A stretch of DNA of 64,000 bases, taken from Candidatus Hodarchaeota archaeon. GTDB lineage: Archaea; Asgardarchaeota; Lokiarchaeia; Sigyniarchaeales; SOKP01. This document shows, one piece after another, positions 18,864 through 50,863 of the stretch. A program made the translations under genes and the position numbers. Position 1 is the first letter of the stretch; each line of letters starts with the position of its first letter. The stretch is taken from contig JBHLJY010000002.1 in NCBI GenBank assembly GCA_048887225.1, forward strand, positions 224,001 to 288,000, read 5' to 3'. The notes beneath the pieces are model-generated. The model was not told the DNA's origin, searched no databases, and saw only the letters and a list, made by a program, of their open reading frames with translations.

Positions 18864-19085
18864 TTTTAATGGTAATAATGTTAAAAAACAATAATGTTAT
18901 TATTTCAACTTTAGTAACAACTAGTATGTAATTAAAGTTTTTATATTGTTATAATTATTTTAATTAAAATTAAGATATTTTAGAGAAATTTTAAAAATAT
19001 CTCTTTTGAAGCAGTTGTAGTCGGAGATATTGAAGATAAATTAATAAAATAAATTAAAAAGCTAGCTAAACTTTAATGAGAAGAG

Positions 19086-35879: not shown

Positions 35880-36704
35880 TCAATATCCCGTAATACCATA
35901 TTTTTTATAGACATGTTTGAATAATAATACTGAAAGAATGGGTCCGAATATTGTCAATATTAAAACAATTGTAAAGTGTATTGTATAGCGTGAATTCCAA
36001 ACGACATTTTCAAAACCAAAAACTAAAATTATCCTGATTGTCTCCCAGAAATAATAAAAAGGATTGAAGTATACAAAAATTTGGAGCTCCTCTGGAAAAA
36101 ATTGTACTGGGTACTTATAACAGCTGAAAATAAGAAAAAACTTAATAAAAAAGAAAAATACCTTGAATTGCCCTTCAGTTGATAACCTAAATGAACCTAT
36201 GGCCAATCCAACTGAAGCAATAAATAAACACGCAGCTAAATAAAAAATTACTGTAAATAAAATTGTCATCAATGAAGCATTAGCAATTATGAAGCATATT
36301 ATAAAAACTAAAAATAATGGAATTAAGAATGCAATTAATTCCGCAATTAATTTGCTAATCAAAACATTATAAGTATTGACAGGAGACATAAATATACCTG
36401 AAAGTGTTTTCCAATACTTTTCTCGTAAAAAGCTATTACCATAAAGAGATATTAAATCAAGAATTATAATGATAAAAACACCTGTTAGTATGAAAATAAT
36501 ATAATTCTCTGGTGTCCAAATTCCAAAAGATTTATCACCAATTTCTTCAAATATCTTATTGAAAACGAGTAATGGAATAATAAAATTTGTAAATGGTATA
36601 ATTATTAAGAGGAGAAACTTTGCTATATATCTTGATCTCAATTTGAGGTCCTTAATGACTAGAGCTTTTGTCTGCGAAATATTTTTTTTAATTTGCTGTA
36701 GCAT
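35880..36704 (-). CDS. ABC-2 type permease (probable start MLQQ at 36704)
   Basis: KDLKLR.RY, EKYWKTLSGIFMSPV, YP...FP, NPFYY..E.IR; about 6 TM segments. Confidence 0.85.
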   Translation of the reverse strand: MLQQIKKNISQTKALVIKDLKLRSRYIAKFLLLIIIPFTNFIIPLLVFNKIFEEIGDKSFGIWTPENYIIFILTGVFIIIILDLISLYGNSFLREKYWKTLSGIFMSPVNTYNVLISKLIAELIAFLIPLFLVFIICFIIANASLMTILFTVIFYLAACLFIASVGLAIGSFRLSTEGQFKVFFFFIKFFLIFSCYKYPVQFFPEELQIFVYFNPFYYFWETIRIILVFGFENVVWNSRYTIHFTIVLILTIFGPILSVLLFKHVYKKYGITGY

Positions 36705-36750
36705 TAAAAAGATATAATTTTTTTTTACTAAATAACTTATTTTAATTAAG

Positions 36751-37587
36751 ATGTTTAACAAGAAAGCGATCAGAAAAAACGTTGTTCAAATTTACTCATT
36801 AACTATAAAAGATTTGAAACTAAAGGGGAGATATAAGAGTGAGTTCTTTGTTGAAAATTTTTTACCATTTCTTACGTTATTTTTTCCTTTCATAATTTTT
36901 AATACACTGTTCCAACTGAAAAGTGATTTTTTTGAAGGTAGTTATTATTCCGTAGAAAATTATATATTATTTTTATTACTCGCTTACTCCGTGGAGTGCT
37001 CTTTATTTTTATTATGGTATTATAGGGATCTTTTTTATGATGAGAAATCTTGGAAAACTCTCAATGGCATAATGGTTGCCCCTGTAAGTAAATTTAATGT
37101 ATTGATCGGTTTTTTTATCTCGGGATTATTTACAAGAGTTTTCTCCATAATTTTCACAATTATTATATGCTATATTTTATTTCCCATCCCATTGGCAACA
37201 TTGATATTTGTATTAATTGTATTATTCTGCATCACATTAACCTTTGCAGGAATGGGATTTATATTAGGATTATTTGAAATTGTAAATGAGAATGTTTCGG
37301 CAAGTTTATCTATTGGAATAAGTTTTATAGCTTTAGTAAGTTGCCTATTCTATCCAATAGAAATCTTTCCTGAACAATTTCACATTATAATTTTGTTAAA
37401 TCCACTTTATTATTATTTTGATCTCTTAAAATTATCTTGGTGGTCAGGTATTAATTATCATGAAGCTATGAGGTATATAACAATAAATCACATTATAATT
37501 GTAGGATTTTGTACAATATTGACTCCATTGATTGCTTCAATTTTATTTTTAAAAATATATCATAGATATGGAGCTTCTGGGTATTAA
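36751..37587 (+). CDS. ABC-2 type permease
   Basis: KDLKLK.RY, EKSWKTLNGIMVAPV, FYPIEIFP, LNPLYY; paralogue of the divergent permease. Confidence 0.88.
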   Translation: MFNKKAIRKNVVQIYSLTIKDLKLKGRYKSEFFVENFLPFLTLFFPFIIFNTLFQLKSDFFEGSYYSVENYILFLLLAYSVECSLFLLWYYRDLFYDEKSWKTLNGIMVAPVSKFNVLIGFFISGLFTRVFSIIFTIIICYILFPIPLATLIFVLIVLFCITLTFAGMGFILGLFEIVNENVSASLSIGISFIALVSCLFYPIEIFPEQFHIIILLNPLYYYFDLLKLSWWSGINYHEAMRYITINHIIIVGFCTILTPLIASILFLKIYHRYGASGY

Positions 37588-37589
37588 AA

Positions 37590-38525
37590 ATGAATGAAAA
37601 TATTATTGAAACTATTGATTTAACTAAAGAATTCAAGTTAAAAGCCGGTGGAAAAATTTTAGCATTAAATCGAATCAATTTCGCAATAAAAAATGGAGAG
37701 ATTTTTGGTCTTTTAGGTCCAAATGGGGCTGGAAAAACTACTTTGGTATCAATTTTATCAACCTTACTACAACCTACTAGTGGAACTGCTAAAGTTTTTG
37801 GATTAGATGTACGGAAAAATCCTAAAGTAATTAAAAGAAAAATCGGGTTAATGTTAGGAGAGGAAATGATTTATTATCGTATGACTGGAATTGACAATTT
37901 AAAATTTTTCGCAAGGCTATATCAAATCAAAAATTATAGAGAAAAGATAAAAGAAGTAACATCAATTTTAGGAATCAATCATAAATTAAAAGAATACGTA
38001 TCCAATTATTCTCGTGGTCAGAAATTAAGAATGGCCTTATCTAGAATTTTACTAATTGAACCTGAACTACTATTTTTAGATGAGCCTTTATTAGGTATGG
38101 ATCCAAAAACTACAAGAGAATTAATTAAAATCCTCGTAGGGCTCGATAAAACAATACTTTTAACTTCTCATCAAATGCATGTTGTTCAACAACTCTGTGA
38201 ACGAATTGCATTTCTAAATCGAGGTAATATCATAAAAATTGATACAAAAGAGAACTTTATTGATATTTTAAGACATTTTATTCGAATAAGTTTCAATATT
38301 ATTGATGAAAAAAATAAAAGACAATTAAAAAAGGAATTAAACTCACTTAATTATATTAATAAAATTAGCCACAAAAAAGATGGTTTTATTATATCTATAA
38401 ATGATTATAAGTATTATCCTTCACTTTTGTCTTGTTTAGGAAAATACCCCGTTCAAAAGATTAGAGAAATAGAACCGAGCTTAGATGATGTATTTATTGA
38501 ATTATCTACTCAAAAAGATATTTAA
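37590..38525 (+). CDS. ABC transporter ATP-binding protein (DrrA/NodI-like)
   Basis: GPNGAGKTT, YSRGQ, LFLDEP, TSH, PSLDDVF. Confidence 0.93.
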   Translation: MNENIIETIDLTKEFKLKAGGKILALNRINFAIKNGEIFGLLGPNGAGKTTLVSILSTLLQPTSGTAKVFGLDVRKNPKVIKRKIGLMLGEEMIYYRMTGIDNLKFFARLYQIKNYREKIKEVTSILGINHKLKEYVSNYSRGQKLRMALSRILLIEPELLFLDEPLLGMDPKTTRELIKILVGLDKTILLTSHQMHVVQQLCERIAFLNRGNIIKIDTKENFIDILRHFIRISFNIIDEKNKRQLKKELNSLNYINKISHKKDGFIISINDYKYYPSLLSCLGKYPVQKIREIEPSLDDVFIELSTQKDI

Positions 38526-38537
38526 GTGTAACTATCT

Positions 38538-39686
38538 GTGAAAATCGATATAATCTTACCTTCATTTAATAAACCTGAAAAATATCAAAGATATCAAAAG
38601 GCCCAAAGATTCACTCCATTTCCATCCTTCATTGGAAGTTGGTTTCCTGTATGGTATAATAGGAAACAACTTAAAAATATGGGAGTGTCTATACGATTTA
38701 TTAATTTTTTTAATATAAACTATAAAAAACTTCGAGATCATGTAGGATTCGACAACAGAATTATAGGGAACTTAGGAAGGAGTTATGGTAAAGTTAGAAT
38801 AACGACTAAAAAAGCGATTATTCCAATATTAAAAAAAATTCGGACTAAGGCAGAACATATTATTTATTTCGACAATGGAGATGGAACAGGCCATACTCAA
38901 TTTGAAGTATTACCTTACGTTGACCGTTATTTAAAAAAACAACTATTAAAAAATCGATTATTATATTCAAATTTTCTTTATAAAAAGCGGTTATTCACCG
39001 ATTTCTATCTAAAAAAATACAATCTAAAACCAGAAGGCACCACCACTTCGCTTCATCCAATTGATCCTCAATATGAGCATAAAATAGGTTTGTCCTGGAA
39101 TTTTGCCTATAGAGACTATCGCCCCTCAAATCAAATTAATAAGATCTTTTATGGCTTTTCAAAATTTCCTTCTTTGAAATACTGTAGCCCTTATAATAGC
39201 CGAAAGTTACTTTTTTCAGCTAATTATAGTATAAAAACGGGTTCAAACTTGATTGATTTTCAGAGGAAAGAGCTTTTAAAATATCTTGAAAACAACTTTA
39301 AAGAAAATAAGGCAGTATCAATTGGGAGGATACCAAAGAAAATATATGTAAAAACTCAAAAAAATTCAAAAGCTATTTTTAGTCCATTTGGTTGGGGGGA
39401 ATTATGTTATCGAGATTTTGAAATTTTCATTTCAGGTGCAGCTTTAATAAAACCCAATGTTGATCATATAGTTACTTGGCCGAAATTATATATAAAAAAC
39501 AAAACTTATTTTCCAATATCGTGGGAAGTTGAAAAATGGGATGATGAAATACCACATATTTTGAATGACGAGAATCTTTTATTAAAAATAGCGATAAAAG
39601 GTCAAGATTCATATAAAAGCCTGTGGACACAAAAGGGGAGAAAAAAGTTCTGTGAGCACTTTATCGAGATGGTAAGTCCAAATTAA
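38538..39686 (+). CDS. GT-B glycosyltransferase-like protein
   Basis: YLKKQLL, FSPFGWGELCYRDFE..ISGA.LIKP, IA.KGQ. Confidence 0.65.
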   Translation: MKIDIILPSFNKPEKYQRYQKAQRFTPFPSFIGSWFPVWYNRKQLKNMGVSIRFINFFNINYKKLRDHVGFDNRIIGNLGRSYGKVRITTKKAIIPILKKIRTKAEHIIYFDNGDGTGHTQFEVLPYVDRYLKKQLLKNRLLYSNFLYKKRLFTDFYLKKYNLKPEGTTTSLHPIDPQYEHKIGLSWNFAYRDYRPSNQINKIFYGFSKFPSLKYCSPYNSRKLLFSANYSIKTGSNLIDFQRKELLKYLENNFKENKAVSIGRIPKKIYVKTQKNSKAIFSPFGWGELCYRDFEIFISGAALIKPNVDHIVTWPKLYIKNKTYFPISWEVEKWDDEIPHILNDENLLLKIAIKGQDSYKSLWTQKGRKKFCEHFIEMVSPN

Positions 39687-40501
39687 GTATTATTAAAAAG
39701 AGATTTTTTTATTAAGATATCTAAATTAAAAGGACGGTATTTGGATGTTTTATTAAATAACTGTTTTAATTTTTCGTATTCGTTATGATTATCTACATCT
39801 AGCCATATCGTATCGGGAAAATCTAAATAAGAAACATTAAAATCTAAATTAATCGCTGAAAGTAAAATATCAGATACTCCAAACTTATCATCAATCTTTT
39901 CGATAAATTGAGATATTCTTTTTATAGTTTTAGTTTTCATAAGAAAGGCGCCCATATCAAGGCGGTTATAATTTTCAATTTGTTTACCAATTTCCTTGAT
40001 TTGGGCATTATATCCAAGAACCTTGGTACAATCCTCTAAATCATAGTGCCCTATAATTTTTATTGGATCGGTAGCTAAGACAATATCTTGATTATTATAT
40101 TTTTTAATTAATTCTTCATATACGTTAACAGAGAAGATGTGGTCAGCCATAGATAATATAAAAAATTCAGAATTTACATTTTTAGCACCTAAGAAGAGGC
40201 TATAGCCATTTTCTCTTTCAATGTTGTCGTTTTCAATGAAATTTAAACTTATATTTGTTGTTTTGAAAGATATGTTTTTTAAAAAACTGAAACATGATTT
40301 TTTTATCTCGGTTGTATCAGCATCCATATCTACAATTAAATTAATTTTTTTAATACCAGCTTTAATCATTCCTACGATTATATAATTTAATATATTAGAC
40401 CTTGCAAAAGGTAATAGATACTTCTTATACGAGCTATCTCGAAAATCGAATCGACTCGCACATCCCGCAGCAAGAATAATACTTTCAACATTCATATTCA
40501 A
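39683..40501 (-). CDS. NTP transferase resembling CTP:inositol-1-phosphate cytidylyltransferase (IPCT); stand-alone
   Basis: ILAAG.ASRF, RENGYSL, SMADH, DMGAF, WLDVD. Directly downstream of two MIPS genes. No fused membrane DIPPS domain. Confidence 0.75.
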   Translation of the reverse strand: MNMNVESIILAAGCASRFDFRDSSYKKYLLPFARSNILNYIIVGMIKAGIKKINLIVDMDADTTEIKKSCFSFLKNISFKTTNISLNFIENDNIERENGYSLFLGAKNVNSEFFILSMADHIFSVNVYEELIKKYNNQDIVLATDPIKIIGHYDLEDCTKVLGYNAQIKEIGKQIENYNRLDMGAFLMKTKTIKRISQFIEKIDDKFGVSDILLSAINLDFNVSYLDFPDTIWLDVDNHNEYEKLKQLFNKTSKYRPFNLDILIKKSLFNNT

Positions 40502-40537
40502 TTAAGATGTCTAATAGTTTCTACTTTAAAAATTAAT

Positions 40538-41677
40538 TTATCTCTCACGTTTACCTTCTATGAATTCTAGAACCCATTCCTTGGCTATAAAATCCGATGG
40601 AGGTTGAATATGGGGGTGTTTAAAACTAAAGGAACTTATGCTTTCTAGTCGCCCTGAAATTCTTCTATCCAAAGCTAGTTTCATAACCCGCACGACATCC
40701 AATATAACTCCTGCGGAATTGGGGGAATCCTCAACCCTGATTTTTACATCCATTACTAAAGGTAAGTTCCCATATGTCGTACCATCTATTCTAATATAAC
40801 AAATCTTTTTATCTTCAAGAAAAGGTACATAATCACTCGGACCAATTCTGCAATTAATAGGATATGGAAGAACAGAAGTTACTGAGGTTGTTTTTGATTC
40901 ACGCTTAGTTTTTAAGCGATTTTCCAATTTCATATTATAGAAATCACCATTGCCTCCGATGTTTAATTGATAAGTATCATTCACTATTACACCCCTATCC
41001 AGAAACATCTTTGCCAGAACTCGATGTGTGATAGTTGCCCCTACTTGAGATTTAATGTCATCTCCTGCGCATGGTAGTCCATTCTTTTCAAATTCAGCAA
41101 CCCAGTCCTTATCTCCCTCGAGCTTTTCAGATATAATAAATTCTGGAATTCCATTAACAAATCCACAACCAGCATCGATAGCTGCTTGAGCATATAATCT
41201 TGAAGCGTTATAGCTTCCGACCGGCAGAAGATTTACTAAGATCTCTGCCCTATTATCTCGTAATGTTTGGGCAATGTCAACAGGTCTAATAACACTTTCA
41301 TCATATGCCTTGAAATAATCTAATGTTGATAAACGCTCATCTTCAGTTTTATAACATCCATCAGAAATTGGTCCGGGATAACAAAGCGCTCCTGTTTTTG
41401 GCATATCGTTAGGTTTTACAATTGGTTGACAACAATTAGGTTCAGCATATATAGCATCTGATATATCTTTATTAATTTTTGTTGTTGAAACATCAAATGC
41501 AGCAACTACTTTAATATGACGAGGCAAATATCCCTCAATACTTGGATTCATTAAACCCATTATATACATATCTTCCTCTTTAATATTCTTATAATATTCA
41601 ATTCCTTGTAATAAAGCAGAAGCACAATTTCCAAGACCAGCTATTGCAATACGAATTTCTTTTGAATCGTTTTCCAT
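40538..41677 (-). CDS. ino1: myo-inositol-1-phosphate synthase
   Basis: GLGNCASAL.QG, LPVGS, GDDIKSQVGAT, LNIGGNGDF, KRESKT, GPSDYVPFLEDKK, EDSPNSAG, FKHP. Confidence 0.93.
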   Translation of the reverse strand: MENDSKEIRIAIAGLGNCASALLQGIEYYKNIKEEDMYIMGLMNPSIEGYLPRHIKVVAAFDVSTTKINKDISDAIYAEPNCCQPIVKPNDMPKTGALCYPGPISDGCYKTEDERLSTLDYFKAYDESVIRPVDIAQTLRDNRAEILVNLLPVGSYNASRLYAQAAIDAGCGFVNGIPEFIISEKLEGDKDWVAEFEKNGLPCAGDDIKSQVGATITHRVLAKMFLDRGVIVNDTYQLNIGGNGDFYNMKLENRLKTKRESKTTSVTSVLPYPINCRIGPSDYVPFLEDKKICYIRIDGTTYGNLPLVMDVKIRVEDSPNSAGVILDVVRVMKLALDRRISGRLESISSFSFKHPHIQPPSDFIAKEWVLEFIEGKRER

Positions 41678-41681
41678 GATT

Positions 41682-42746
41682 TCAACCCTCCTGTTTTATT
41701 CCTAATATAAATGATGCTAAATTTTTATTTGCCTCTGATGGATTCTTAGGATATTTTGGTGGATTTTTAAATCCATACGCAGAAATTTCATCTATTGATC
41801 CTGCGACACCCTGATTAATTGCGACTTTTGTAGCACGAATGACATCTGCTAATACAGAACCACCATTAGGACCATCTTCAGTTTGGATCTTAATATCCAT
41901 AATTACCTTAGATCCTAAGAAACCATTTCCAACAATCCAGAGCATAGAGTTCCGTTTATTCTTAAGGAAACCCACCCAATCAGAAGTTCCGGCCACAATT
42001 GGAGCATCAATATTTAAAGCTCCCGCTACGGACTTACTTTTTATTTCTCGTTTTATTTCTCGCGCTCGATATATTGTATTTAAACTCTCAGCACCACCCC
42101 CAACATCGAGAGCATAACTTTCTTTTATATCAATCCCCCGATCCAACAATTCTTGAAGAATTAATTTATGCAATATTGTCGCTCCAAATTGGTCTTGTAA
42201 ATCATCTCCAATTAGAGGCAATTTTGCATCATAGAATTTTTGAGCAATTTCTTTATCGGTTGCAATACTTGTAGGTGTAGCATTAATAAAGGCACAACCA
42301 GCTTTAAGGGCTTCGCTTGCATAAAATCGTACAGCATTGTCTGCTCCAGAAGGTAATAAGCATAAGACAATCTCCGCCCCGGTCGATATTAAGTATTCAG
42401 ATATATTTATTGATGGTAGTTTTGCTGGTTTAATATTAAATTCTGTTTCCTTAATGGCTCCATCTAAAACATTGCCCATAACAACGATGATATCATAATT
42501 TTTACGGAAATCAACCTTAATATCCAATTCATTTTCTCTAATTGCTTTGTAAACCTTTTTACCAACCTTTCTCTCCGAGATATCAACAGCTGCGACTATC
42601 TGAATATCTGAAATATGATAACCAGCTAACGTTGGGCGAAGCAATCCTCCATTATTCAATCCCTCACGGTAATATTCAATACCTTGGATTAACGCAGATG
42701 CAGCATTACCTATTCCAACAATTGCTAACTTAATTTTTTCTGGCAT
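41682..42746 (-). CDS. Divergent myo-inositol-1-phosphate synthase paralogue
   Basis: GIGNAASALIQG, GDDLQDQFGAT, GTSDWV, EDGPNGG, FKNPP; several active-site positions differ. Confidence 0.8.
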   Translation of the reverse strand: MPEKIKLAIVGIGNAASALIQGIEYYREGLNNGGLLRPTLAGYHISDIQIVAAVDISERKVGKKVYKAIRENELDIKVDFRKNYDIIVVMGNVLDGAIKETEFNIKPAKLPSINISEYLISTGAEIVLCLLPSGADNAVRFYASEALKAGCAFINATPTSIATDKEIAQKFYDAKLPLIGDDLQDQFGATILHKLILQELLDRGIDIKESYALDVGGGAESLNTIYRAREIKREIKSKSVAGALNIDAPIVAGTSDWVGFLKNKRNSMLWIVGNGFLGSKVIMDIKIQTEDGPNGGSVLADVIRATKVAINQGVAGSIDEISAYGFKNPPKYPKNPSEANKNLASFILGIKQEG

Positions 42747-42907
42747 ATGAACACTTCACTGTGAATTTCAGTATAAATTTGATTATTAAGAAATCAAAAT
42801 AAAATTTTCTCTATTGGATGAAAACATAAAGAGGAAAAAAATATAAAACATCATTTAATAAAAATAAATAGAAGAGAAGGATATAATGTTATAAATTTAA
42901 CAATCTC

Positions 42908-45352
42908 ATGCCAAAAATAACCAAGATATTTAATCGAATTTTGGATTTGATTTCCAAAAGGATTGCCATGAATATTAGGCACTTTTTTAGCCTGATAATC
43001 TCAAAATTTTATAGTAATAAAGTTGACGAGAATTTAATTGTCTTTGGATCTACGAACGGGAATGCTTTTTCTGGAAATTCTAAAGAACTATTTTTATATC
43101 TAACAGAAAACTCAAATTATCACTGTGTCTGGTTTACCTCATCAGATATAATTCTGAATGATTTAAGAAAAAAGGGATATCATGCAGAGTCAAATCGTAA
43201 GATTGTAAAACCGGTAAAATTCTTAAAAAGAGCCAAATATATCTTTATCACCCATGGATTCGGGGATGTTTTATTAGTAGATTTCTCACCAGATACTACT
43301 GTGGTTCATTTAGACCATGGTTCTGCATTAAAACTCATTGGATACGGTTTGAAAGCTTCATTTTTAAATGTGTTTCAGAGGAAAGTCCATGAGTATTGGA
43401 ATAAAAGAATTAGTTATTTAACGGTTTGTTCAGAGGAAACAAAAAGAATCAAGCGATTTAGTTATGATTTACCCTCTGAAAGAGTAATAATTACGGGATA
43501 TCCAAGAAATAAAACTCTTGAAGAAAACTCAATTGAAGCTCAAAATGAGCTAAGGGAGAAATTATATATTGAAAATAGTGAGGAAATATTATTATATGCT
43601 CCTACTTTTAGGGATTATCCCATTCAGAGCCCTCTTAATGGTGATTTTTTAAAAGAATTAGATGAATTTTTATTAAGAAATAATAAAATTCTTTTATACA
43701 AACCTCATCCATTTGAGGAAAAAATAGATCTTAACAAATATCAAAATATTAGATCAATCGACCCGAATGTTGATATTAATGATTTACTTGTAATTGCCGA
43801 TTTGTTAATAACAGATTATTCTGGTGTATTTTTTGATTATCTTCTCACTTTAAGACCAATTCTTTTTTTTCCTTATGATTTAGAGAAATATACAGGAGCA
43901 CGAGACTTTTTTTATGATTATAACACCCTTGTTCCAGGCCCAATTGTTAGGACTGGAGAACAGTTAATCTCAAAATTAGAAACTATGCAACAATGGAGCG
44001 TGGAATATTTAGAATCAAGATTAAAGGCTCGAGATAAATTTAATAAATATCACGACGGAAGAGCAATACAAAGAATCGTAGAACTTTTAAACCTTAAAAT
44101 AGAAAAACCAATAAGACCTATATTACCTCCAAAAGTTAGGATTGAGCCACTCATTGGAAGATTTAATAGGACCTTCAATAATGTTCTTGAATTTGTATCC
44201 AAAAAAGTTGGAATGAATATAAAACATATTTTATCTTATCCCTTGTCCAAGCTATTTAGTAAAAAGGTATATGATAGCCTCTTAGTATTTGGTAGTACCA
44301 ATGGTCAAGCGTTTGCAGGTAATCCGAAGGTTGTCTTTCAATACTTATGTGAACATTCAAATTATAAGTGTGTATGGATTACTGGTTCTGAAAACGTCTA
44401 TAGAGATTTAAAAAGACGAAATTATAATGTCGTCTTGAATAAAAATATAATTAAGACAATAAAAACTCTCAAAGCAGCCAAATATATTTTTATTTCACAT
44501 GGATTTGGAGATATTTTTTATATCGATTTTTCACCAAAATCAAGATTAATTCATTTAGCACATGGAATATCCTTTAAGAAAGGAGGTCATGATTTAGAAT
44601 CAACCTTCATGCCTTTCGTTGAGAAGTGGATGAATAAAATGCTTGTCAATCATATGAATCTTTTGATTGATTCTTCAGAAGAGACAAAACGCCATAAAAT
44701 GACAAGATTTAGCCTCCCTACTGATAGAATTGCGGTAACTGGTTATCCAAGAAATGATATTTTAATTAACCATACTAAAGATTTAGATAATAGTATTAAG
44801 AAAGGATTAGGAATCAAAAAGAATTATGAAGTGATATTATACGCTCCAACGTTCAGGGACTACAGCTATACGCCTCCTTTAAGCAAACCATTTCTCGAAA
44901 AACTAGAAGAATACCTCATAGCTGAAAACAAATGTTTTTTATATAAACCGCATCCATTTGAAAAGCAACTTGATTTAGGTGATTTTAAGAATATTAAGTC
45001 AATCGATCCTAACGTTGACATCCTTGATTTATTAATAATTTCCGATATATTGATAACAGATTATTCTAGTGTATTTTATGACTATCTCCTCACAGTAAGA
45101 CCAATAATCTTTTTTGCAGAGGATTTAGATAGATATACCAATGTAAGAGATTTTTATTATGATTACGAATCATTCGTACCTGGACCAGTTGTAAAAACCA
45201 GCGACCAATTAATTGAAGTTCTAAAATCTTTTAATCAATGGGAACCAAAATATAAAGAAAGAAGAAAACAAATGCGAGATCAATTTAATAAATATCATGA
45301 TGGAAGGTCTACAGAGAGAATTGTTGATCTACTCGAATTAAAGACGTTTTAA
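42908..45352 (+). CDS. Protein with two tandem TagF/TagB-like CDP-polyol phosphotransferase domains
   Basis: Two copies of HG..K, TGYPRN, LYAPTFRD, KPHP, ITDYS..F.DY, YHDG...RIV joined by a Pro-rich linker. Confidence 0.9.
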   Translation: MPKITKIFNRILDLISKRIAMNIRHFFSLIISKFYSNKVDENLIVFGSTNGNAFSGNSKELFLYLTENSNYHCVWFTSSDIILNDLRKKGYHAESNRKIVKPVKFLKRAKYIFITHGFGDVLLVDFSPDTTVVHLDHGSALKLIGYGLKASFLNVFQRKVHEYWNKRISYLTVCSEETKRIKRFSYDLPSERVIITGYPRNKTLEENSIEAQNELREKLYIENSEEILLYAPTFRDYPIQSPLNGDFLKELDEFLLRNNKILLYKPHPFEEKIDLNKYQNIRSIDPNVDINDLLVIADLLITDYSGVFFDYLLTLRPILFFPYDLEKYTGARDFFYDYNTLVPGPIVRTGEQLISKLETMQQWSVEYLESRLKARDKFNKYHDGRAIQRIVELLNLKIEKPIRPILPPKVRIEPLIGRFNRTFNNVLEFVSKKVGMNIKHILSYPLSKLFSKKVYDSLLVFGSTNGQAFAGNPKVVFQYLCEHSNYKCVWITGSENVYRDLKRRNYNVVLNKNIIKTIKTLKAAKYIFISHGFGDIFYIDFSPKSRLIHLAHGISFKKGGHDLESTFMPFVEKWMNKMLVNHMNLLIDSSEETKRHKMTRFSLPTDRIAVTGYPRNDILINHTKDLDNSIKKGLGIKKNYEVILYAPTFRDYSYTPPLSKPFLEKLEEYLIAENKCFLYKPHPFEKQLDLGDFKNIKSIDPNVDILDLLIISDILITDYSSVFYDYLLTVRPIIFFAEDLDRYTNVRDFYYDYESFVPGPVVKTSDQLIEVLKSFNQWEPKYKERRKQMRDQFNKYHDGRSTERIVDLLELKTF

Positions 45353-45357
45353 TTTAA

Positions 45358-46512
45358 TCAAGCTATTTTTTCAATCTTCTTATTGTATAAATCGGTAAAA
45401 ATCTCTTTCCATTTTATAATTGCGATTTCAATGTTCATCTCTCGCTTAACATATTTGTAAGCATTCTCGCTGAAATTTGTCCATGCCTCTGGATTTTTGA
45501 GCAAGTGATTCAAATTCTCTATTAATGTGTTGAAATTATTATTACAAAACAGACCAACTTGGTTTTTTCCTATGAAATTGTCAGGATTGATATTTAAGCT
45601 TAAGATTGGTGTTGAAGAATTCATTGATTGATTGAAAGAATTAGGAAAACCTTCTGTTAATGATGTATTCACAAATACCTTCGCATTTTTATAATAATCA
45701 TCCACCTCAGAAAAAGGTATACCTGGTATAAATTGAAGATTTTTGACCTTATTTGCAGTATTCTTAATATATTCAAAGTATTTAATGTCGTCTGCAGCCG
45801 GCATTATCATAATAAATTTTTCGTTAGGAAAATTTCTCGCCAAATCGATAAATACTTCTGGTCTTTTCCATTTTTTACCCCTTGCAACCCAAAGAATAAA
45901 ATCTCTTTTCTTGGTATCAGTTTTTTTGATAGAATAACTATTCCGAATTACTAAAGAATCAAAATTAAAGGTTCTTTTTAGAATATCTCGATCTTCCTCA
46001 TTTTGAACTACAATATAATCCACTTTTTTAAATCCTAAATAAAAGAATGAATATCTTCCACTTCCTTTTAAAATTTTTTTCAATAAATATAGTTTATTTA
46101 CTTGATGTTGATGTTCTGTTCGATGGATATGAACTTTTTTGTTTAACCTACAATAAAAATTAGTAAAGCCCACATATTTAGATAAATTAGCTGTGAAATA
46201 AATATCAGCATTTATTTGAGCCAGTTTCTTGTAAAATTTAAAAAATGAAAGGATATAGTTTTTAAAATTTTTCTTCTGTGAATGTCCTTTAATTACTTTT
46301 ATGTTATTGTATATTTCAAGAGATTTTTGACCGAAATCAGCTACCAAAAAATATATCTCGAAATTGTCATCCTTTACTAATTCATTGGCAATATTATATA
46401 AATCTACTTCTGCTCCGCCTATTTTTGCTTTTGAAGCCGGATTAAAGACCGCATAGGTGAACGCTTGTACAAAACAGATTTTAATCTTCCTTGTCATTTT
46501 AAACTCTTTCAA
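45358..46512 (-). CDS. GT4 glycosyltransferase
   Basis: IGGAE, WVAR...KRP, FVNTSLTEGFPNSF. Confidence 0.88.
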   Translation of the reverse strand: MKEFKMTRKIKICFVQAFTYAVFNPASKAKIGGAEVDLYNIANELVKDDNFEIYFLVADFGQKSLEIYNNIKVIKGHSQKKNFKNYILSFFKFYKKLAQINADIYFTANLSKYVGFTNFYCRLNKKVHIHRTEHQHQVNKLYLLKKILKGSGRYSFFYLGFKKVDYIVVQNEEDRDILKRTFNFDSLVIRNSYSIKKTDTKKRDFILWVARGKKWKRPEVFIDLARNFPNEKFIMIMPAADDIKYFEYIKNTANKVKNLQFIPGIPFSEVDDYYKNAKVFVNTSLTEGFPNSFNQSMNSSTPILSLNINPDNFIGKNQVGLFCNNNFNTLIENLNHLLKNPEAWTNFSENAYKYVKREMNIEIAIIKWKEIFTDLYNKKIEKIA

Positions 46513-47324
46513 ATTTTTCTAAAAACTGCCTCAAATGAAGGCACATTCCATTTATGATATTCTTCATAAAAGATAAATTCCAATGAAGTTTCCTTGTTAT
46601 TAATAAATTTGAATTTTTCTCCTTTTTGGTTTTCCAGAAATAATTCATTATTTTCAACATAAATATCATATTTATGCATACCAGTCCAAGATTTTCTTGA
46701 TCCCTCTCTTGTATTACTACACACAAAGAAGAATCCCCCTTTTTTAAGTAATTGATATCCATTTCTAAAACATTTTAGCGGATTCTCAGCATGATCTAAA
46801 GAATTTTGAGCAAATACTATATGAAAACTTTCTTTTTTAAAAGCTTTTAATAGATCTTCACCTTTCAATTTGATTGGAACAATTGGATAAGTATATTTTA
46901 ATTTTTTCATCATTCTTTCATAGATATCCGCCAATGGGTCAATTGCTGTAACTTTTATTAATTTTCTATCGACCCAATAAGATAGATTTGAATTAGGACC
47001 CGAACCAATTTCCAAGGTTTCTAATAATGATACATTGAATTTTTCTCTTAACTTTGATACCTCATCTCTTATCCCGGGAGCAAATGCCGCTGGATTTTTT
47101 CTACAAGATTCTAAAAAAGCAATTGGATCTTCTTTTTTTATAAAAAATAAACTTTCATAACTATAAACTTCGGAAGCTATGTTTGTTTCTCGTCTTATAT
47201 ATGATCTGAGTGAAAAGTATAAAGATTTCAAAAGTAGTTTTAAATTAATAAAGCTTATTTTGTTCTCTTTAATTGCTAGAGCAATAAACTCGTTAAATTT
47301 CTTAGATACGCCAGTTCGTTTCAT
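46509..47324 (-). CDS. SAM-dependent methyltransferase
   Basis: LEIGSGP, AIDPL, GEDL, NSLDH, LLKKGG. Confidence 0.85.
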   Translation of the reverse strand: MKRTGVSKKFNEFIALAIKENKISFINLKLLLKSLYFSLRSYIRRETNIASEVYSYESLFFIKKEDPIAFLESCRKNPAAFAPGIRDEVSKLREKFNVSLLETLEIGSGPNSNLSYWVDRKLIKVTAIDPLADIYERMMKKLKYTYPIVPIKLKGEDLLKAFKKESFHIVFAQNSLDHAENPLKCFRNGYQLLKKGGFFFVCSNTREGSRKSWTGMHKYDIYVENNELFLENQKGEKFKFINNKETSLEFIFYEEYHKWNVPSFEAVFRKI

Positions 47325-47431
47325 ACTATTACGATCCGATGAATTTTTATGAATGTTCTTTTTATAATATCTTTTAATTCTATGCTAAAATAAATTTTTA
47401 ACTTATTAGAGATTTTTGAAATCATACTATT

Positions 47432-48328
47432 ATGAGAAATCAAAAAGTTATTGTTATAAATGGATTTCAGAGAGGTGGGACTAATATCATTTACAATATT
47501 TTTCAATCTCATCCATTAGTTTGCTCACCAAATAATCTTGAAACAGGTGAAATAATTTCACAAAATTATCGATTATATAAATATCCTAAAATTAAATTAA
47601 TCAAATATTTTATAAAACGCTTAAAATTAAAGCTCTATGACATATTAAATAGTAAATTCATTTTAAATTCATTTTTAGTTCTGATATTTGGAAGCTTTTA
47701 TGATAAAATCTTTTATAAATATAAAAAGATGAATTATACAGATCCATTCAATAAATATAAATATGAAAATGAACCTTATAACAAAAAAGAAGTTAAAAAC
47801 AGCGTAATTTGTTTGAAATCCATCCACAACGATATTAGGTTAACGGCCTTCCTCTCTAAAATTTATAAAAATATCTTTTTCATAGGATTAGTAAGAAATG
47901 GTTATGCACTATGTGAAGGTTGGATTAGAAGAGGAAAAAATGCTGAATATTGCGGTTTGAGATATCGAAAATTCTGTGAAATGATGATTAAGGATAAGAA
48001 GAAGTTTAAAAATTATAATATCATAAAATTTGAAGACGTCTTAAAGAATCCATTTGAGATGGCATCAAGGCTATATAAATTTACAAAGCTAACACCAATT
48101 TCTTTAGAAAAGTTAAGATTTCAAGTAAAAAAGATCTTAACTGTCGATGGACACAAAATAAAATTTGGAAAAGAAAGAGCTAAATATTGGTTTGATCATG
48201 AAACTGTAAACGATTTATTTGATCCAAATATTAATAAAATTCAAATTCAAAACCTTTCAGCAGAGAATCGAAAGATTTTTGAAAAGAATACTAAATCGAT
48301 ATTAAAATATTTCAATTATTTAACCTAA
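47432..48328 (+). CDS. Sulfotransferase (PAPS-dependent)
   Basis: INGFQRGGTN (5'-PSB), SHP, LVRNG (3'-PB), IKFEDVLKNP. Confidence 0.75.
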   Translation: MRNQKVIVINGFQRGGTNIIYNIFQSHPLVCSPNNLETGEIISQNYRLYKYPKIKLIKYFIKRLKLKLYDILNSKFILNSFLVLIFGSFYDKIFYKYKKMNYTDPFNKYKYENEPYNKKEVKNSVICLKSIHNDIRLTAFLSKIYKNIFFIGLVRNGYALCEGWIRRGKNAEYCGLRYRKFCEMMIKDKKKFKNYNIIKFEDVLKNPFEMASRLYKFTKLTPISLEKLRFQVKKILTVDGHKIKFGKERAKYWFDHETVNDLFDPNINKIQIQNLSAENRKIFEKNTKSILKYFNYLT

Positions 48329-48353
48329 ATAACATTAAAAACTTTTATTAAAA

Positions 48354-49616
48354 ATGAGAATAGCCCTAATCACTAACAATTTCTTACCAAAAACAGGCGG
48401 AATCACAAATGTTATGGTAAATGTTAGTGGAAAACTGAAAAAATTAGGAGAAAAAGTCTCAGTTTTAAATAAAACTCATGATGAGAAAGAGCGGTTATGT
48501 TATAAATTGTTATCAAATACTACATCCTTGAAAGGAATAGTTGTTCATAATGTAAAGTTCTTTTATTTCTTATTTTTTCTATTCTTAAAAATTATATTTT
48601 CTTTTAAAGAAATTACACTTAAAGATAAATTGAGGTTAGCATCATTTTATTGTTTTTATCCTAAATTTATCGTCAGGAGAACTATTTCACTTAAAAACTT
48701 AGTTTCACATTTCAAAAAACAGAAATATGATATTGTATTAAGTGGAACTTCAGATATCTCTCTATTATATAGTTTTATTATAGCAAAGTGGTTTAGGCTC
48801 CCGCTAATTACAATTGCACATGGTGATGATTTTCTCAGAAGATATCCTTTTAAAATTAAAGAGTATATCTTCCAGAACATCCAAAAACTTGTTGTGACTA
48901 ATGAATTCATGCGAAAACTATTTTTAAAAATCTATGATGTCAATCCTGTTAATGTAAATGTAATACATTTAGGTGTAAATATTGAAGAAAGCCAAGTAAA
49001 AGAATCAATCATTGACTTAAGAAAAAAATTCAATATCTTATCAGATGAGTTTATAATTCTTACTGTAAGTCGTTTTTATCCCAGAAAAGGATTTGAAACA
49101 GTTTTAAAAGCAATTAGGCTCATAAAAGATGAAAATCCGGGCATTAAAATTAAATACTGCCTAATAGGGAGAGGAGAGGAAGAGAAAAGAATTATAAACA
49201 CAATCAAGAGTTTAGAACTAAACGATGATGTGAAATTATTAGGTCAGGTTGATGACATTACTAAAAATCAATTCTACAAATTATCAAATGTTTTTGTTTT
49301 AGTTCCTGAAATAAGTAAAAACTCTATCGAAGGTTTTGGTATAGTTTATACTGAAGCGAATTATTTCCACATACCAGTAATTGGATCAAGGTCTGGAGGA
49401 GTAAGAGTAGCAATTGAAGATGGTAAAAATGGTTTTCTAATTGACCCCAAAGATGTAGAAAATTTGAAGATCTTAATTATGAAATTATATGAAAACGAAC
49501 AGCTCCGTAAAAAATTAGGAGAATATGGCCATAACAGAGTTATAGATTTATTTAATTGGAGCAAAAATGCTTTAAAATATAGAGAATTATTAAAAAAAAC
49601 AAAAGAAGAATTTTGA
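48354..49616 (+). CDS. GT4 glycosyltransferase
   Basis: FLPKTGG, AHG.D, VSRFYPRKG, EGFGIVYTEA. Confidence 0.9.
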   Translation: MRIALITNNFLPKTGGITNVMVNVSGKLKKLGEKVSVLNKTHDEKERLCYKLLSNTTSLKGIVVHNVKFFYFLFFLFLKIIFSFKEITLKDKLRLASFYCFYPKFIVRRTISLKNLVSHFKKQKYDIVLSGTSDISLLYSFIIAKWFRLPLITIAHGDDFLRRYPFKIKEYIFQNIQKLVVTNEFMRKLFLKIYDVNPVNVNVIHLGVNIEESQVKESIIDLRKKFNILSDEFIILTVSRFYPRKGFETVLKAIRLIKDENPGIKIKYCLIGRGEEEKRIINTIKSLELNDDVKLLGQVDDITKNQFYKLSNVFVLVPEISKNSIEGFGIVYTEANYFHIPVIGSRSGGVRVAIEDGKNGFLIDPKDVENLKILIMKLYENEQLRKKLGEYGHNRVIDLFNWSKNALKYRELLKKTKEEF

Positions 49617-49624
49617 TATAAATA

Positions 49625-50863
49625 ATGGGCACAAAATTATTAGAATTAATCGCATCAAAAATAAAAATAATCAAATTCGCAAAAATCTTAAGGATAAATC
49701 CAAAATTCTTCTTAGATATTGTTCTTTTCCACTTTTCAAAACTTTTTAGCGCAAAAATCGATGATAAATTAATTATCTTTGGCTCAGTTGGTGGAAAAGC
49801 ATTTATTGGGAATCCGAAATATATATATCAGTACTTAAAGGAAAATACAGATTACAAGCTAATTTTCTTTGCCCAATCCAAAAACGTGAAAAACAAATTA
49901 GAAAACGAAGGTATAAAGGCAATTAACAGACATTCTATAAAAGCGATTAAAATATTGAGAAAAGCACGAGCTGTTTTTGTTTCACATGGATACGAAGATG
50001 TTTTACCGATTAAATTCTCACCAAAATCATTAGTAATTTATACTGGTCATGGGGGAGGTATCAAGATAAAAGGAAAGAATCCATATCATCAAAAATATAT
50101 CTATTCTAATTGGACAAAAATCTTGAGAGTTAAATTACGTGAGCATGAATATTTAGATTATGTTGTAAGCCCTTCTGGTTCAGGAAAGCCTCTAAAAATA
50201 TGGGCAAATATGTTACAATACCCTTTGGACAGGATATTGCCAACGGGATATCCTAGAAATGATATCTTTTTTGCTGACGACCCTTCATTAAAGACAAAGT
50301 TTAAAGATCGTTATGACATACCAAAAAATATTCAAAGAATAATATTATATGCCCCGACATATAGGGAGATTTTCTCAACAAAAGAACCTTTTACTACTGA
50401 AGATATGAAAAAATTGGATGATTTATGTAAAAACACCAATTCTATCCTTTTAATTAAGGGTCATGTGAAAGAAAAAATCATTAAATTCAAAGATTTAGAA
50501 AATATTAAAAAAGTTATTGGAGATTCAGACACGCAAGAACTCTTATATATTACGGATGTTTTAATAACAGATTATTCAACAATTTTTCATGATTTTCTGC
50601 TTCTAGACCGCCCAATCTTATTATACACTTATGATTATGATGAATACGTTAGTAAACGTGGAATTTATTATGATCATCTAGAAGAAGTCGCTCCTGGCCC
50701 TTTAATATATAACTTCAATGATCTATATGAGGCGCTAAAGAATATTGATAAAATAAAAGCTGAATATGACAAGAAAAGAATTGAATTACGAAATTACTTT
50801 AATAAATATAACGATGGGAACTCTTCGGAACGACTTTTGAGATTTTTAAAGCTAATAAATTAA
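49625..50863 (+). CDS. TagF/TagB-like CDP-polyol phosphotransferase (single domain)
   Basis: GHG..IK, TGYPRND, LYAPTYRE, KGH, ITDYSTIFHDF, NDGNSSER. Confidence 0.9.
   Translation: MGTKLLELIASKIKIIKFAKILRINPKFFLDIVLFHFSKLFSAKIDDKLIIFGSVGGKAFIGNPKYIYQYLKENTDYKLIFFAQSKNVKNKLENEGIKAINRHSIKAIKILRKARAVFVSHGYEDVLPIKFSPKSLVIYTGHGGGIKIKGKNPYHQKYIYSNWTKILRVKLREHEYLDYVVSPSGSGKPLKIWANMLQYPLDRILPTGYPRNDIFFADDPSLKTKFKDRYDIPKNIQRIILYAPTYREIFSTKEPFTTEDMKKLDDLCKNTNSILLIKGHVKEKIIKFKDLENIKKVIGDSDTQELLYITDVLITDYSTIFHDFLLLDRPILLYTYDYDEYVSKRGIYYDHLEEVAPGPLIYNFNDLYEALKNIDKIKAEYDKKRIELRNYFNKYNDGNSSERLLRFLKLIN

Follow-up and report, generated by a model that had tools for sequence, protein, structure and literature searches.

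The 64,000-nt window analyzed here, the whole stretch of DNA to which all positions below refer, comes from a Lokiarchaeal (Asgard) genome that is 98% complete (G000). MIPS cyclizes glucose-6-phosphate to inositol-1-phosphate, and in this window a MIPS gene and an IPCT-like cytidylyltransferase gene lie next to genes for TagF-type phosphotransferases. What donor do these transferases use? A sequence-only reading had proposed CDP-inositol. We followed up this proposal in G000 and across its Lokiarchaeal family (135 genomes, coded Gnnn), and the evidence leans modestly toward a pathway in which CDP-inositol would feed TagF-like transferases that place inositol phosphate on an exported glycan.

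Organization of the locus

The open reading frames were confirmed at the coordinates listed below, and all module genes are intact. On the minus strand, MIPS-like, MIPS and IPCT-like genes follow one another from 42746 to 39683, head-to-head with a double-TagF gene starting at 42908. One more TagF gene, the third (49625), lies in this glycan locus, as does an ABC-2 exporter (35880-38525). Open reading frames, Pfam and NCBIfam all agree with this arrangement as first read from the sequence, and close homologs bear Promethearchaeota or Lokiarchaeota names, as expected from the Asgard origin that had been proposed.

32565..33833, minus strand: GT4 glycosyltransferase at the locus edge (PF00534); kept beside TagF in G241 and G266
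33863..35872, minus strand: 669-aa membrane protein, 12 TM (hydropathy); possible GT-C type transferase or ligase
35880..36761, minus strand: ABC-2 permease (PF01061/PF12698; 5-6 hydrophobic segments)
36751..37587, plus strand: ABC-2 permease (PF01061 26.2 bits; 6 hydrophobic segments)
37590..38525, plus strand: ABC transporter ATPase with DrrA-type C-terminal domain (PF00005 96 bits, PF13732)
38538..39686, plus strand: soluble 382-aa protein, possible GT-B glycosyltransferase; converges on IPCT
39683..40501, minus strand: IPCT-like candidate for a CTP:inositol-1-phosphate cytidylyltransferase, 272 aa (NF041135 IPCT half, E 4e-29)
40538..41677, minus strand: myo-inositol-1-phosphate synthase, MIPS, 379 aa (PF01658 105 bits; TIGR03450 356 bits; PDB 1gr0 E 6.5e-90)
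41682..42746, minus strand: MIPS-like paralog, 354 aa, first gene of the string (PF01658 51.6 bits; TIGR03450 220 bits)
42747..42907, no strand: divergent intergenic region, 161 bp, AT-rich, common to the MIPS-like operon and the double-TagF gene
42908..45352, plus strand: double-TagF protein, 814 aa (PF04464, two stretches, 524 bits in total)
45358..46512, minus strand: GT4 glycosyltransferase (PF00534/PF13439); adjoins the TagF gene also in G172, G170 and G150
46509..47324, minus strand: SAM methyltransferase (PF08241); kept in G172 and G170
47432..48328, plus strand: sulfotransferase (PF13469); IPCT neighbor also in G170 and in metagenome locus L093
48354..49616, plus strand: GT4 glycosyltransferase (PF00534 138 bits)
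49625..50863, plus strand: third TagF-type phosphotransferase, 412 aa (PF04464 247 bits, single domain)

TATA-like runs read in the divergent region 42747..42907 point in both directions, from which we infer a promoter role; a bacterial-type promoter scan scored the region no better than shuffles. Among the export genes, which recur across module copies, the permease at 36751-37587 scores just below the 26.9-bit PF01061 cut-off and is 97% identical in G172. The protein encoded at 38538-39686 has no match in Pfam or NCBIfam; an Atlas feature search links it to Glyco_trans_1_2/RXYLT1_C clusters at 0.94-0.98, which is a lead only, and its gene adjoins IPCT also in G172 and G167. Likewise, the membrane protein at 33863-35872 has no Pfam match and an Atlas lead to PMT/DUF6541-like archaeal clusters. 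It has a paralog at 57028-59022.

The cytidylyltransferase and the MIPS pair

The product of 39683-40501 is an NTP transferase, whose top NCBIfam match is the IPCT half of the IPCT/DIPPS model NF041135 (model positions 2-221). The score is 102 bits against an equivalog cut-off of 580, for a model that spans both halves of a bifunctional protein. Its best PDB sequence matches are the IPCTs of T. maritima (4jd0, 1e-15) and A. fulgidus (2xme, 9e-11), the top three structural matches of its AF2 model (pLDDT 90) are 4jd0, 4mnd and 2xmh, and the active-site Arg, Lys and Asp (R16, K26 and the Asp of MxDH), taken as quoted in PMC12275187, are kept. In the IPCT tree, the genes of the Lokiarchaeal family form one clade, with a DIPPS+MIPS-linked group (support 99/98) nested among TagF-linked genes, and these DIPPS+MIPS-linked IPCTs of the same family are the closest relatives of 39683-40501, as sister groups. 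Profile search and phylogeny therefore agree with the original IPCT call, and the closest relatives together with the MIPS linkage suggest that the enzyme makes CDP-inositol.

The two MIPS genes differ. The protein at 40538-41677 has canonical MIPS motifs and shares 76-84% identity with the MIPS of the same module in other genomes. In the MIPS-like protein at 41682-42746 the catalytic motifs are altered: compared with M. tuberculosis Ino1, GDDIKSQ becomes GDDLQDQ and the GGN.DF motif becomes GGGAES, and a conserved Lys is missing. Orthologs in other Asgard archaea (65-70% identity) are solitary genes whose products have an N-terminal HTH, a feature often present throughout this Asgard-wide family. 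The MIPS-like protein is probably no second synthase, and a second cyclitol product is unlikely because the conserved Lys is lost.

TagF domains

The three TagF domains of the G000 genome all lie inside the window. Both catalytic His residues are kept in each half of 42908-45352 and are invariant in all three domains; in 49625-50863 they are His142 and His280, which correspond in the alignment to His444 and His584 of S. epidermidis TagF. Where the WHG motif has Trp, the three domains carry Asp, Ala and Gly, and they score below every NCBIfam equivalog cut-off for TarB, TarF and TarL. In the TagF tree, IPCT/MIPS-linked TagFs form clades of their own and both halves of 42908-45352 fall within an IPCT/MIPS-adjacent clade, so that phylogeny and PF04464 bear out the TagF assignment. 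The IPCT-linked TagF clade has two members whose loci lack IPCT, and in one such genome (G203, 94% complete) no IPCT match was found anywhere.

The third TagF (49625-50863) matches Cps3D in sequence. It is closest to a pair of G170 genes that flank a phosphonate cassette, followed by IPCT/MIPS-adjacent TagFs, leaving its donor uncertain. The proposal that CDP-inositol serves all TagF enzymes of the locus is thus supported for the double-TagF protein and weakened for the third.

Conservation of the module across genomes

IPCTs of the Lokiarchaeal family fall into two groups. Those of the first occur with MIPS and a DIPPS-type enzyme, in the classical di-inositol-phosphate operon. Those of the second, including 39683-40501, are accompanied by a TagF gene and the MIPS pair, an association seen in at least five genera and in several gene orders. 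The second, TagF-linked group is found in 10 of the 135 family genomes, and TagF is present in 10/10 of these compared to 30/125 of the others, counts that come from related genomes and hence not from independent samples. IPCT thus accompanies TagF in this group and a DIPPS-type enzyme in the other.

In G170, IPCT and TagF lie no more than 15 kb apart; in G000, G172, G150, G155, G241, G266, G174 and two metagenome contigs the distance is 0-2.5 kb. These loci show at least three gene orders, with the MIPS-like/MIPS pair alongside in most; a search for an IPCT-TagF fusion found none. G172 has lost the MIPS pair from this locus, where it retains IPCT and the double TagF, and has MIPS elsewhere in the genome. 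Heimdall-type and other Asgard families contain more distant IPCT-like genes next to TagF; no MIPS gene was found within 10 kb of these, and again MIPS is elsewhere in all of these genomes.

Other relatives carry other genes beside TagF: in G208 a true TagD directly adjoins it, and in further family genomes its neighbors are a PEP mutase-NTP transferase fusion, a decarboxylase, an Fe-ADH and an NTP transferase. Since relatives have TagD or a phosphonate cassette in this position, the neighboring cassette appears to set the donor. Of 80 TagF loci in other prokaryotes, 34 have TagD at a distance of up to 10 kb and none has MIPS nearby, which indicates that the MIPS-TagF pairing is no general by-product.

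Alternative donors and consumers

None of the PF01066, PF01467 and PF01128 matches of G000 falls in the window, and none in the whole genome is a DIPPS-clade, TagD or TarI ortholog. The lack of DIPPS, TagD and TarI first noticed in the window thus extends genome-wide. The best TIGR01518 match in G000 scores 38 bits, with the cut-off at 165, and we rejected this gene as TagD because its neighbor, a riboflavin kinase, marks it as RibL-type. Searches of G000 gave nothing above noise for IspD/TarI, and found neither PEP mutase nor phosphonopyruvate decarboxylase. The DIPPS-clade ortholog, of the type found beside IPCT in other Asgard archaea, is absent from all seven genomes checked in which the TagF-linked IPCT group is the only one present (G000, G172, G170, G174, G150, G155 and G266).

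A rather unlikely alternative is that CDP-inositol is used elsewhere by a membrane CDP-alcohol phosphotransferase, yielding di-myo-inositol phosphate or a BEPIS-like inositol ether lipid, and that TagF uses another donor and shares with IPCT only an envelope island. All known CDP-inositol consumers (DIPPS, Rhodothermus BEPIS) do work with an IPCT-MIPS operon (PMC4587543), and one metagenome contig has MIPS and IPCT in a glycan locus with TagF not within 10 kb. Moreover, G000 keeps two AIPS/DIPPS-like CDP-alcohol phosphotransferases outside the window, C7:39505-40146 (73 bits on the DIPPS half of NF041135) and C1:294791-295759 (a 313-aa form restricted to this genus, beside GT2 and B12-radical-SAM genes), both possible CDP-inositol users that temper the support for CDP-inositol as TagF donor. 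However, the C7 orthogroup is found in 6/6 genomes examined, even in those with a true DIPPS-clade gene, and so does not track IPCT. G241 lacks the C1 form, and G150, G155 and G266 show no full-length match to it; all four carry the module. Also against this alternative, no other TagF donor pathway was found in G000, and the IPCT-TagF linkage outlasts rearrangement in at least five genera.

It is unlikely, too, that the NTP transferase activates another phospho-alcohol for TagF to transfer, such as sn-glycerol-1- or -3-phosphate or the product of the MIPS-like protein, with MIPS serving a lipid or a further-modified precursor. Members of COG1213, the family of IPCT, include phosphocholine, phosphoglutamine and phosphoglycerate cytidylyltransferases (PMC12275187), so that the substrate cannot be read from similarity alone; the low NF041135 score, the G172 locus and the distant Asgard loci lacking nearby MIPS also fit this view. 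Against it stand the DIPPS+MIPS-linked sister IPCTs, the canonical MIPS directly adjoining IPCT in most module copies, the MIPS found elsewhere in G172 and all distant cases, and the Lys lost from the MIPS-like protein. Finally, a chance neighborhood without functional link, with some genes perhaps inactive, is very improbable: glycan islands do have a mosaic make-up, and genomes differ in the gene order that surrounds the module, but all genes are intact, four gene families stay together despite rearrangement in at least five genera and two independent metagenome contigs, and MIPS accompanies TagF in none of the 80 loci from other prokaryotes.

Proposed pathway

The CDP-inositol reading is therefore supported by linkage across genera, the sister DIPPS-linked IPCTs, the lack of a DIPPS, TagD, TarI or phosphonate route in G000, and the cassettes of relatives. 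In the pathway that we propose, MIPS (40538-41677) would turn glucose-6-phosphate into inositol-1-phosphate, which the IPCT-like enzyme (39683-40501) would condense with CTP to CDP-inositol. TagF-type domains, in this scheme certainly both of 42908-45352 and possibly 49625-50863, would then use CDP-inositol instead of a membrane CDP-alcohol phosphotransferase (DIPPS), releasing CMP, as suggested by synteny and the absence of other donors and consumers. The acceptor would be a lipid-linked glycan that the neighboring GT4 enzymes assemble and the methyl- and sulfotransferases modify. The ABC-2 transporter would export the product, and the GT-C-like membrane protein may attach it outside.

Comparison with known systems

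Bacillota wall teichoic acid synthesis (TagD/TarIJ, TagB/TagF/TarL, TagGH) resembles the pathway proposed here in having a soluble cytidylyltransferase that makes a CDP-alcohol, two-His PF04464 enzymes that pass the alcohol phosphate on to a lipid-linked acceptor, and export of ABC-2 type. Here, by contrast, MIPS and IPCT (COG1213 fold) replace TagD (HxGH fold) or TarI/TarJ, the WHG Trp is substituted and scores stay under the TarB/TarF/TarL cut-offs, the locus has no TagO-type gene, the genome has no LCP ligase, and there is no peptidoglycan. Gram-negative TagF-like capsule polymerases use CDP-glycerol and are fused to GT domains, whereas the present locus has free-standing GT4 genes and CDP-inositol as its proposed donor. 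Common to both Cps3D-type systems (PDB 8qoy) and this locus are TagF-like domains with glycosyltransferases, sugar-polyol-phosphate polymers (here as a possible product) and ABC export.

The hyperthermophile di-myo-inositol-phosphate pathway (MIPS, IPCT, DIPPS; 2xme, 4jd0, 4mnd) resembles the module in having MIPS beside the nearest-related IPCT, and sister genes of the same archaeal family lie in classical MIPS-IPCT-DIPPS operons. It differs in that here TagF is the neighbor, in a glycan/export locus, and the DIPPS clade is absent from G000 and six others. BEPIS belongs to the membrane CDP-alcohol phosphotransferases and acts on lipid, unlike the candidate transferase here, a TagF domain that is soluble, GT-B-like and encoded in a glycan locus. 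As far as the account in PMC4587543 goes, the Rhodothermus marinus ino1-IPCT-BEPIS operon makes a CDP-inositol-dependent ether phosphoinositol lipid (Jorge et al. 2015), and CDP-inositol can thus donate inositol phosphate to acceptors beyond inositol phosphate.

A teichoic-acid-like poly(inositol-phosphate) backbone and single decorations fit the locus alike. Single decorations would resemble the Thermococcus kodakarensis N-glycan, for whose inositol-phosphate step we know of no assigned enzyme. This archaeal protein-linked glycan, which carries phosphodiester-linked myo-inositol (Hirao et al. 2023, as cited in PMC11407970), is the sole product precedent that we found. No paper describing an IPCT/MIPS-TagF pairing was found in the literature. 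The locus would join two known modules in a new way to make an inositol-phosphate-bearing surface glycoconjugate, and points to an undescribed route by which inositol phosphate may reach a surface glycan.

Gene content of the glycan locus

The ORF map and the Pfam and NCBIfam scans bear out every gene call of the sequence-only reading. The features on which the analysis relies are the following (window coordinates):

35880-38525: ABC-2 exporter, upstream in the locus, composed of two PF01061 permeases and a PF00005 ATPase
39683-40501, minus strand: NTP transferase resembling CTP:inositol-1-phosphate cytidylyltransferase (IPCT), 36 bp beyond MIPS
40538-41677, minus strand: canonical myo-inositol-1-phosphate synthase (MIPS), 4 bp downstream of the MIPS-like gene
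41682-42746, minus strand: MIPS-family (MIPS-like) gene, called by Pfam/NCBIfam
42908 (start): double-TagF gene of 814 aa with two complete PF04464 domains, facing the MIPS-like gene
Between the TagF genes: two GT4 genes, a methyltransferase and a sulfotransferase
49625 (start): third PF04464 gene, 412 aa

An AT-rich gap of 161 bp separates the MIPS-like gene from the double-TagF gene. A sigma-70 and terminator scan for promoters performed no better than its shuffles, these being bacterial-type models that are inapplicable to archaea. The glycan locus extends from around 27.7 kb to the end of the window and also hosts more GT4 and GT2 genes, two epimerase/dehydratases, a radical SAM/SPASM gene and three large polytopic proteins with no Pfam match. 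The Asgard assignment is correct, the close homologues being from Promethearchaeota/Lokiarchaeota assemblies.

Several other features of the locus were recorded. The polytopic proteins (27761-30046, 33863-35872 and 57028-59022) have 12-17 hydrophobic segments and may be GT-C type transferases or ligases; an Atlas feature search places the one at 33863-35872, as a lead, near PMT/DUF6541-like archaeal clusters. The permease genes are divergent, with predicted starts overlapping by 11 bp (36751-36761), and the same arrangement is found in the compared genome G172; the TTG start of the minus-strand permease may be mis-set. Positions 38538-39686 encode a soluble protein of 382 aa with no Pfam match, which is kept adjacent to IPCT within the genus and for which the Atlas leads are Glyco_trans_1_2/RXYLT1_C clusters (GT-B/RXYLT1-like families). 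RXYLT1 glycosylates ribitol phosphate, and the 382-aa protein might glycosylate inositol phosphate. Radical SAM/SPASM genes recur at the edges of glycan loci (window 51569-52729; 499-1647 and 18547-19650 in the compared loci L095 and L027, respectively).

The cytidylyltransferase is closest to known IPCTs

The NTP transferase had been read as an IPCT, and profile, PDB sequence, structural matches and tree agree in placing it nearest to IPCTs. Its best NCBIfam match is the IPCT half of NF041135, the bifunctional model of IPCT and DIPP synthase (DIPPS), with an E-value of 4e-29, twenty orders of magnitude ahead of the next family (1.8e-8). The score of 102 bits misses the curated equivalog cut-off of 580, which was set for fused IPCT and DIPPS and is out of reach for a stand-alone IPCT. 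Only three PDB sequences match, all of them IPCTs, and the AF2 model (pLDDT 90) returns in Foldseek 4jd0 (T. maritima IPCT), 4mnd (A. fulgidus IPCT-DIPPS) and 2xmh (A. fulgidus IPCT) as the top three structures, with RmlA-type folds close behind. The residues critical in T. maritima IPCT are R16, K26 and D112, that is the Arg of GxGxR, a Lys about 10 residues on and the catalytic Asp (PMC12275187). When 35 homologues are aligned, K26 and the Asp of MxDH are invariant and R16 nearly so.

Because the COG1213 family also includes phosphocholine, phosphoglutamine and phosphoglycerate enzymes (PMC12275187), similarity alone does not fix the substrate, and the case for inositol phosphate rests on genomic context. 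The coupling to a MIPS gene upstream on the same strand recurs in five compared genomes (G150, G155, G266, G241 and G167) and in loci L093 and L094. A sequence search at E 1e-5 returned no longer protein containing the IPCT domain. The long matches scanned in an exhaustive search included no IPCT-TagF fusion; in them, IPCT is joined either to a radical SAM domain or to a CDP-OH transferase, the latter with or without an LPG-synthase TM domain.

TagF domains and the donor genes beside them

The earlier assignment of three domains to TagF, the teichoic-acid-type CDP-alcohol phosphotransferase, is supported by PF04464 matches in all three and by the conserved catalytic histidines. Against a cut-off of 22, the two domains of the double gene together score 524 bits and the 412-aa protein scores 247. 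Its H142 and H280 correspond to H444 and H584 of S. epidermidis TagF, and neither residue varies across an alignment of 15 domains, the two halves of the double gene among them. No orthology to the characterized TarB, TarF or TarL was found (105 bits versus 500, 301 versus 550 and 237 versus 1000, respectively).

The Trp of the WHG motif, which precedes the first His, is replaced in the window domains (DHG, AHG and GHG), as it is throughout the first of two IPCT-linked clades and in IPCT-adjacent genes of Heimdall type. The second IPCT-linked clade retains WHG or FHG, and so do all relatives found in TagD, phosphonate or PheRS contexts. Judged from the alignment, this replacement suggests a reshaped pocket and is not a clean marker. 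In the TagF tree, the IPCT/MIPS-linked genes form these two clades apart from most TagD- and phosphonate-linked genes. Both halves of the double gene fall in the first; the 412-aa protein groups first with two genes of the compared sister genome G170 and next with the second IPCT-linked clade. Because the two G170 genes flank a phosphonate cassette, the donor of the 412-aa protein is less certain. A phosphonate pathway is missing from the window's own genome, G000. IPCT is absent from the loci of two TagF genes that belong to the IPCT-linked clade.

Where the donor is known, the gene beside TagF predicts it, as the TagD and cassette neighbors indicate. True TagD, the source of CDP-glycerol, occurs in 3 of the 135 genomes of the window's family, and in G208 a TagF gene is its immediate neighbor. 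Elsewhere in the family, many TagF genes adjoin a PEP mutase-NTP transferase fusion, a TPP decarboxylase, an Fe-alcohol dehydrogenase and a second NTP transferase, a set that is a nucleotide-activated phosphonate cassette. It is found beside TagF at L096:4881-10797 (G147), in loci L104, L105, L107 and L114, and at L027:10536-18404 (G170), which suggests that the TagF-type enzymes there transfer nucleotide-activated phosphonate onto glycans. Among the 80 non-Asgard TagF loci listed, mostly from Bacillota, TagD lies within 10 kb in 34 and MIPS in none; the pairing with MIPS and IPCT is thus not a generic by-product.

IPCT genes of the window's family occur in two contexts

IPCT-like genes were detected in 91 and TagF in 83 of the 400 Asgard genomes searched, related genomes not being independent samples. 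Within the window's family, the IPCT genes split in two by identity, context and tree. Group A genes (56-69% identical to the window gene) are accompanied by TagF and by the MIPS-like/MIPS pair. Group B genes (45-54% identical) have beside them a CDP-alcohol phosphotransferase and a lone, more distant MIPS, an arrangement that is the classical operon for di-myo-inositol phosphate (DIP). The two groups are each other's closest relatives, since group B forms a well-supported clade (99/98) nested among group A.

Group A is present in 10 family genomes, all of which have TagF. In eight of the 10, IPCT and TagF share a contig, at a distance of 0-2.5 kb in seven and of 15 kb in G170. The module occurs in at least three gene orders, and the same four-family core is found on two independent metagenome contigs, for which the Pfam annotation was done by others. 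Around this core, ABC-2 genes, GT4 genes and a sulfotransferase are recurrent. One glycan locus with MIPS and IPCT has no TagF within 10 kb. The linkage of ino1, IPCT and TagF that the earlier reading proposed to look for across Asgard genomes holds for most of group A, whereas group B IPCT goes with a DIPPS-type enzyme instead.

The MIPS pair is accessory

When compared to M. tuberculosis Ino1 and to the adjoining MIPS, the MIPS-like protein has GDDLQDQ for GDDIKSQ and GGGAES for GGN.DF. Its orthologs, which share 65-70% identity, are found widely among Asgard lineages; they stand alone, are 395 aa long and carry a helix-turn-helix at the N-terminus. The one of the cultured Lokiarchaeum ossiferum lies away from IPCT and TagF. 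A regulatory or non-catalytic role seems more likely than a second synthase. In the Asgard-wide family, Lys is replaced by Gln in GDDxKSQ and most members are 395-400 aa long with the helix-turn-helix (for example, P0230 of L. ossiferum, L116:10001-11188, and P0218 in L117). The stand-alone genes adjoin a PGM-like gene and an Arf-type GTPase, and the family may be a MIPS-derived sugar-phosphate-sensing regulator.

A third MIPS gene of G000 (contig C3, 100546-101634) has canonical motifs, and all relatives examined carry an ortholog. This gene probably serves inositol lipids as the housekeeping MIPS, and the window pair is therefore accessory. The sister genome G172 keeps IPCT, the double TagF and the housekeeping MIPS. 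It has lost the MIPS pair, leaving between IPCT and the double TagF a remnant of 48 codons (L025:5770-5913) that matches the MIPS-like gene at 88% identity; the deletion is recent and spared the rest of the module. In G170, MIPS-like, MIPS and housekeeping-type MIPS genes lie in tandem on contig C9 (693538-696269), a different contig from IPCT, so that the pair holds together even apart from IPCT.

Alternative donors and consumers in the rest of the genome

All three TagF domains of G000 lie in the window, as seen in a profile search of the 98% complete assembly. The sequence-only reading had noted that DIPPS, TagD and TarI are missing from the window; searched genome-wide, G000 has no ortholog of any of them. 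A rival explanation is that CDP-inositol is consumed by a CDP-alcohol phosphotransferase, of which G000 has four: an archaetidylserine synthase, an AIPS-like enzyme, a 211-aa AIPS/DIPPS-like protein on contig C7 and a 313-aa form on contig C1. The last two are possible consumers. In a tree of 36 CDP-OH transferases, the clades that neighbor or are fused to IPCT contain no gene from G000, G172 or G170, and G174, G150, G155 and G266 also have no DIPPS ortholog, their best matches being just 31-37% identical. Against the C7 gene, its orthogroup does not track IPCT, since all six genomes examined have it, including those with true DIPPS. The C1 gene (294791-295759; L204:6792-7733), which has an extra N-terminal membrane region and is found in this genus only, has as neighbors a processive-type GT2, B12-binding radical SAM genes and an SCP2-like gene. 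A lipid head-group pathway is one possible role, and the gene is a candidate alternative user of CDP-inositol.

Genes for other TagF donors were also sought. In G000, TIGR01518 (TagD) reaches at best 38 bits, where its cut-off is 165. PF01467 marks three genes: PPAT, NMNAT and a 149-aa RibL-like gene. The last of these, on C7, gives the 38-bit score, adjoins a CTP-dependent riboflavin kinase and was rejected as a hidden TagD. Likewise, the 142-aa 'TagD-like' genes near PheRS in relatives are PPAT orthologs, 71% identical to the PPAT of G000. Matches to IspD/TarI in G000 are at noise level, and neither PEP mutase nor phosphonopyruvate decarboxylase was found there. Another NTP transferase (C2:300734), located 36 kb downstream from the TagF genes, was discarded, as its neighbors are an Asn-synthase-like gene and an esterase, with no polyol-phosphate maker.

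A proposed route for inositol phosphate and its meaning

We judge it somewhat probable that CDP-inositol feeds the TagF-like transferases, which would place inositol phosphate on a glycan. Synteny and the lack of TagD, TarI, phosphonate and DIPPS genes favor this donor, as first proposed from the sequence; for the 412-aa TagF the proposal stands less firmly. In the pathway, MIPS would supply inositol-1-phosphate, as known for its family, and IPCT would make CDP-inositol, a step well supported by context. The TagF domains would pass inositol phosphate to a lipid-linked glycan built by the GT4 enzymes, which is the novel step; the 382-aa protein may also take part in glycan assembly. Methyl and sulfate groups would be added, the ABC-2 system would export the product, again from family knowledge, and a GT-C-like 12-TM protein might, more speculatively, attach it.

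Polymer and decoration both fit the gene evidence and look alike from genes alone. Decoration is possible because the N-glycan of T. kodakarensis carries myo-inositol phosphate, according to PMC11407970. We regard as tentative, and rather unlikely, the wider reading that Lokiarchaeia export a teichoic-acid-like polymer with inositol phosphate in its backbone, built by CDP-inositol-dependent TagF-type polymerases. One TagF scaffold would then serve the whole family with interchangeable donor cassettes (CDP-inositol, CDP-glycerol and CMP-phosphonate), giving strain-specific anionic surface coats.

The locus shares with the wall teichoic acid pathway PF04464 and a TagGH-like ABC-2 exporter, but the TagD/TarI supply, the LCP ligase (PF03816 is missing from G000) and the peptidoglycan acceptor are absent, archaea lacking murein. 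With the DIP pathway it shares MIPS and IPCT, but a DIPP synthase of the IPCT-linked clade is missing from G000. To our knowledge, CDP-inositol is used only by CDP-alcohol phosphotransferases of the membrane, which make the solute DIP or one bacterial ether lipid, and we know of TagF-type enzymes only with CDP-glycerol and CDP-ribitol. PMC4587543 gives DIPPS and BEPIS as users of CDP-inositol. Full-text searches of the literature turned up no pathway that links CDP-inositol to TagF, to teichoic acid or to archaeal glycans, in line with the earlier impression that no such system had been described; the novelty would lie in an archaeal pathway of TagF type that uses a new donor.

If true, this would give the well-studied TagF family a new donor and activated inositol a new fate, and could reveal what type of enzyme places inositol phosphate on the glycans of archaea. 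Asgard archaea are the closest prokaryotic relatives of eukaryotes. The pathway would offer a first handle on their cell-surface chemistry, which is almost unknown, at the surface that mediates their syntrophic contacts.
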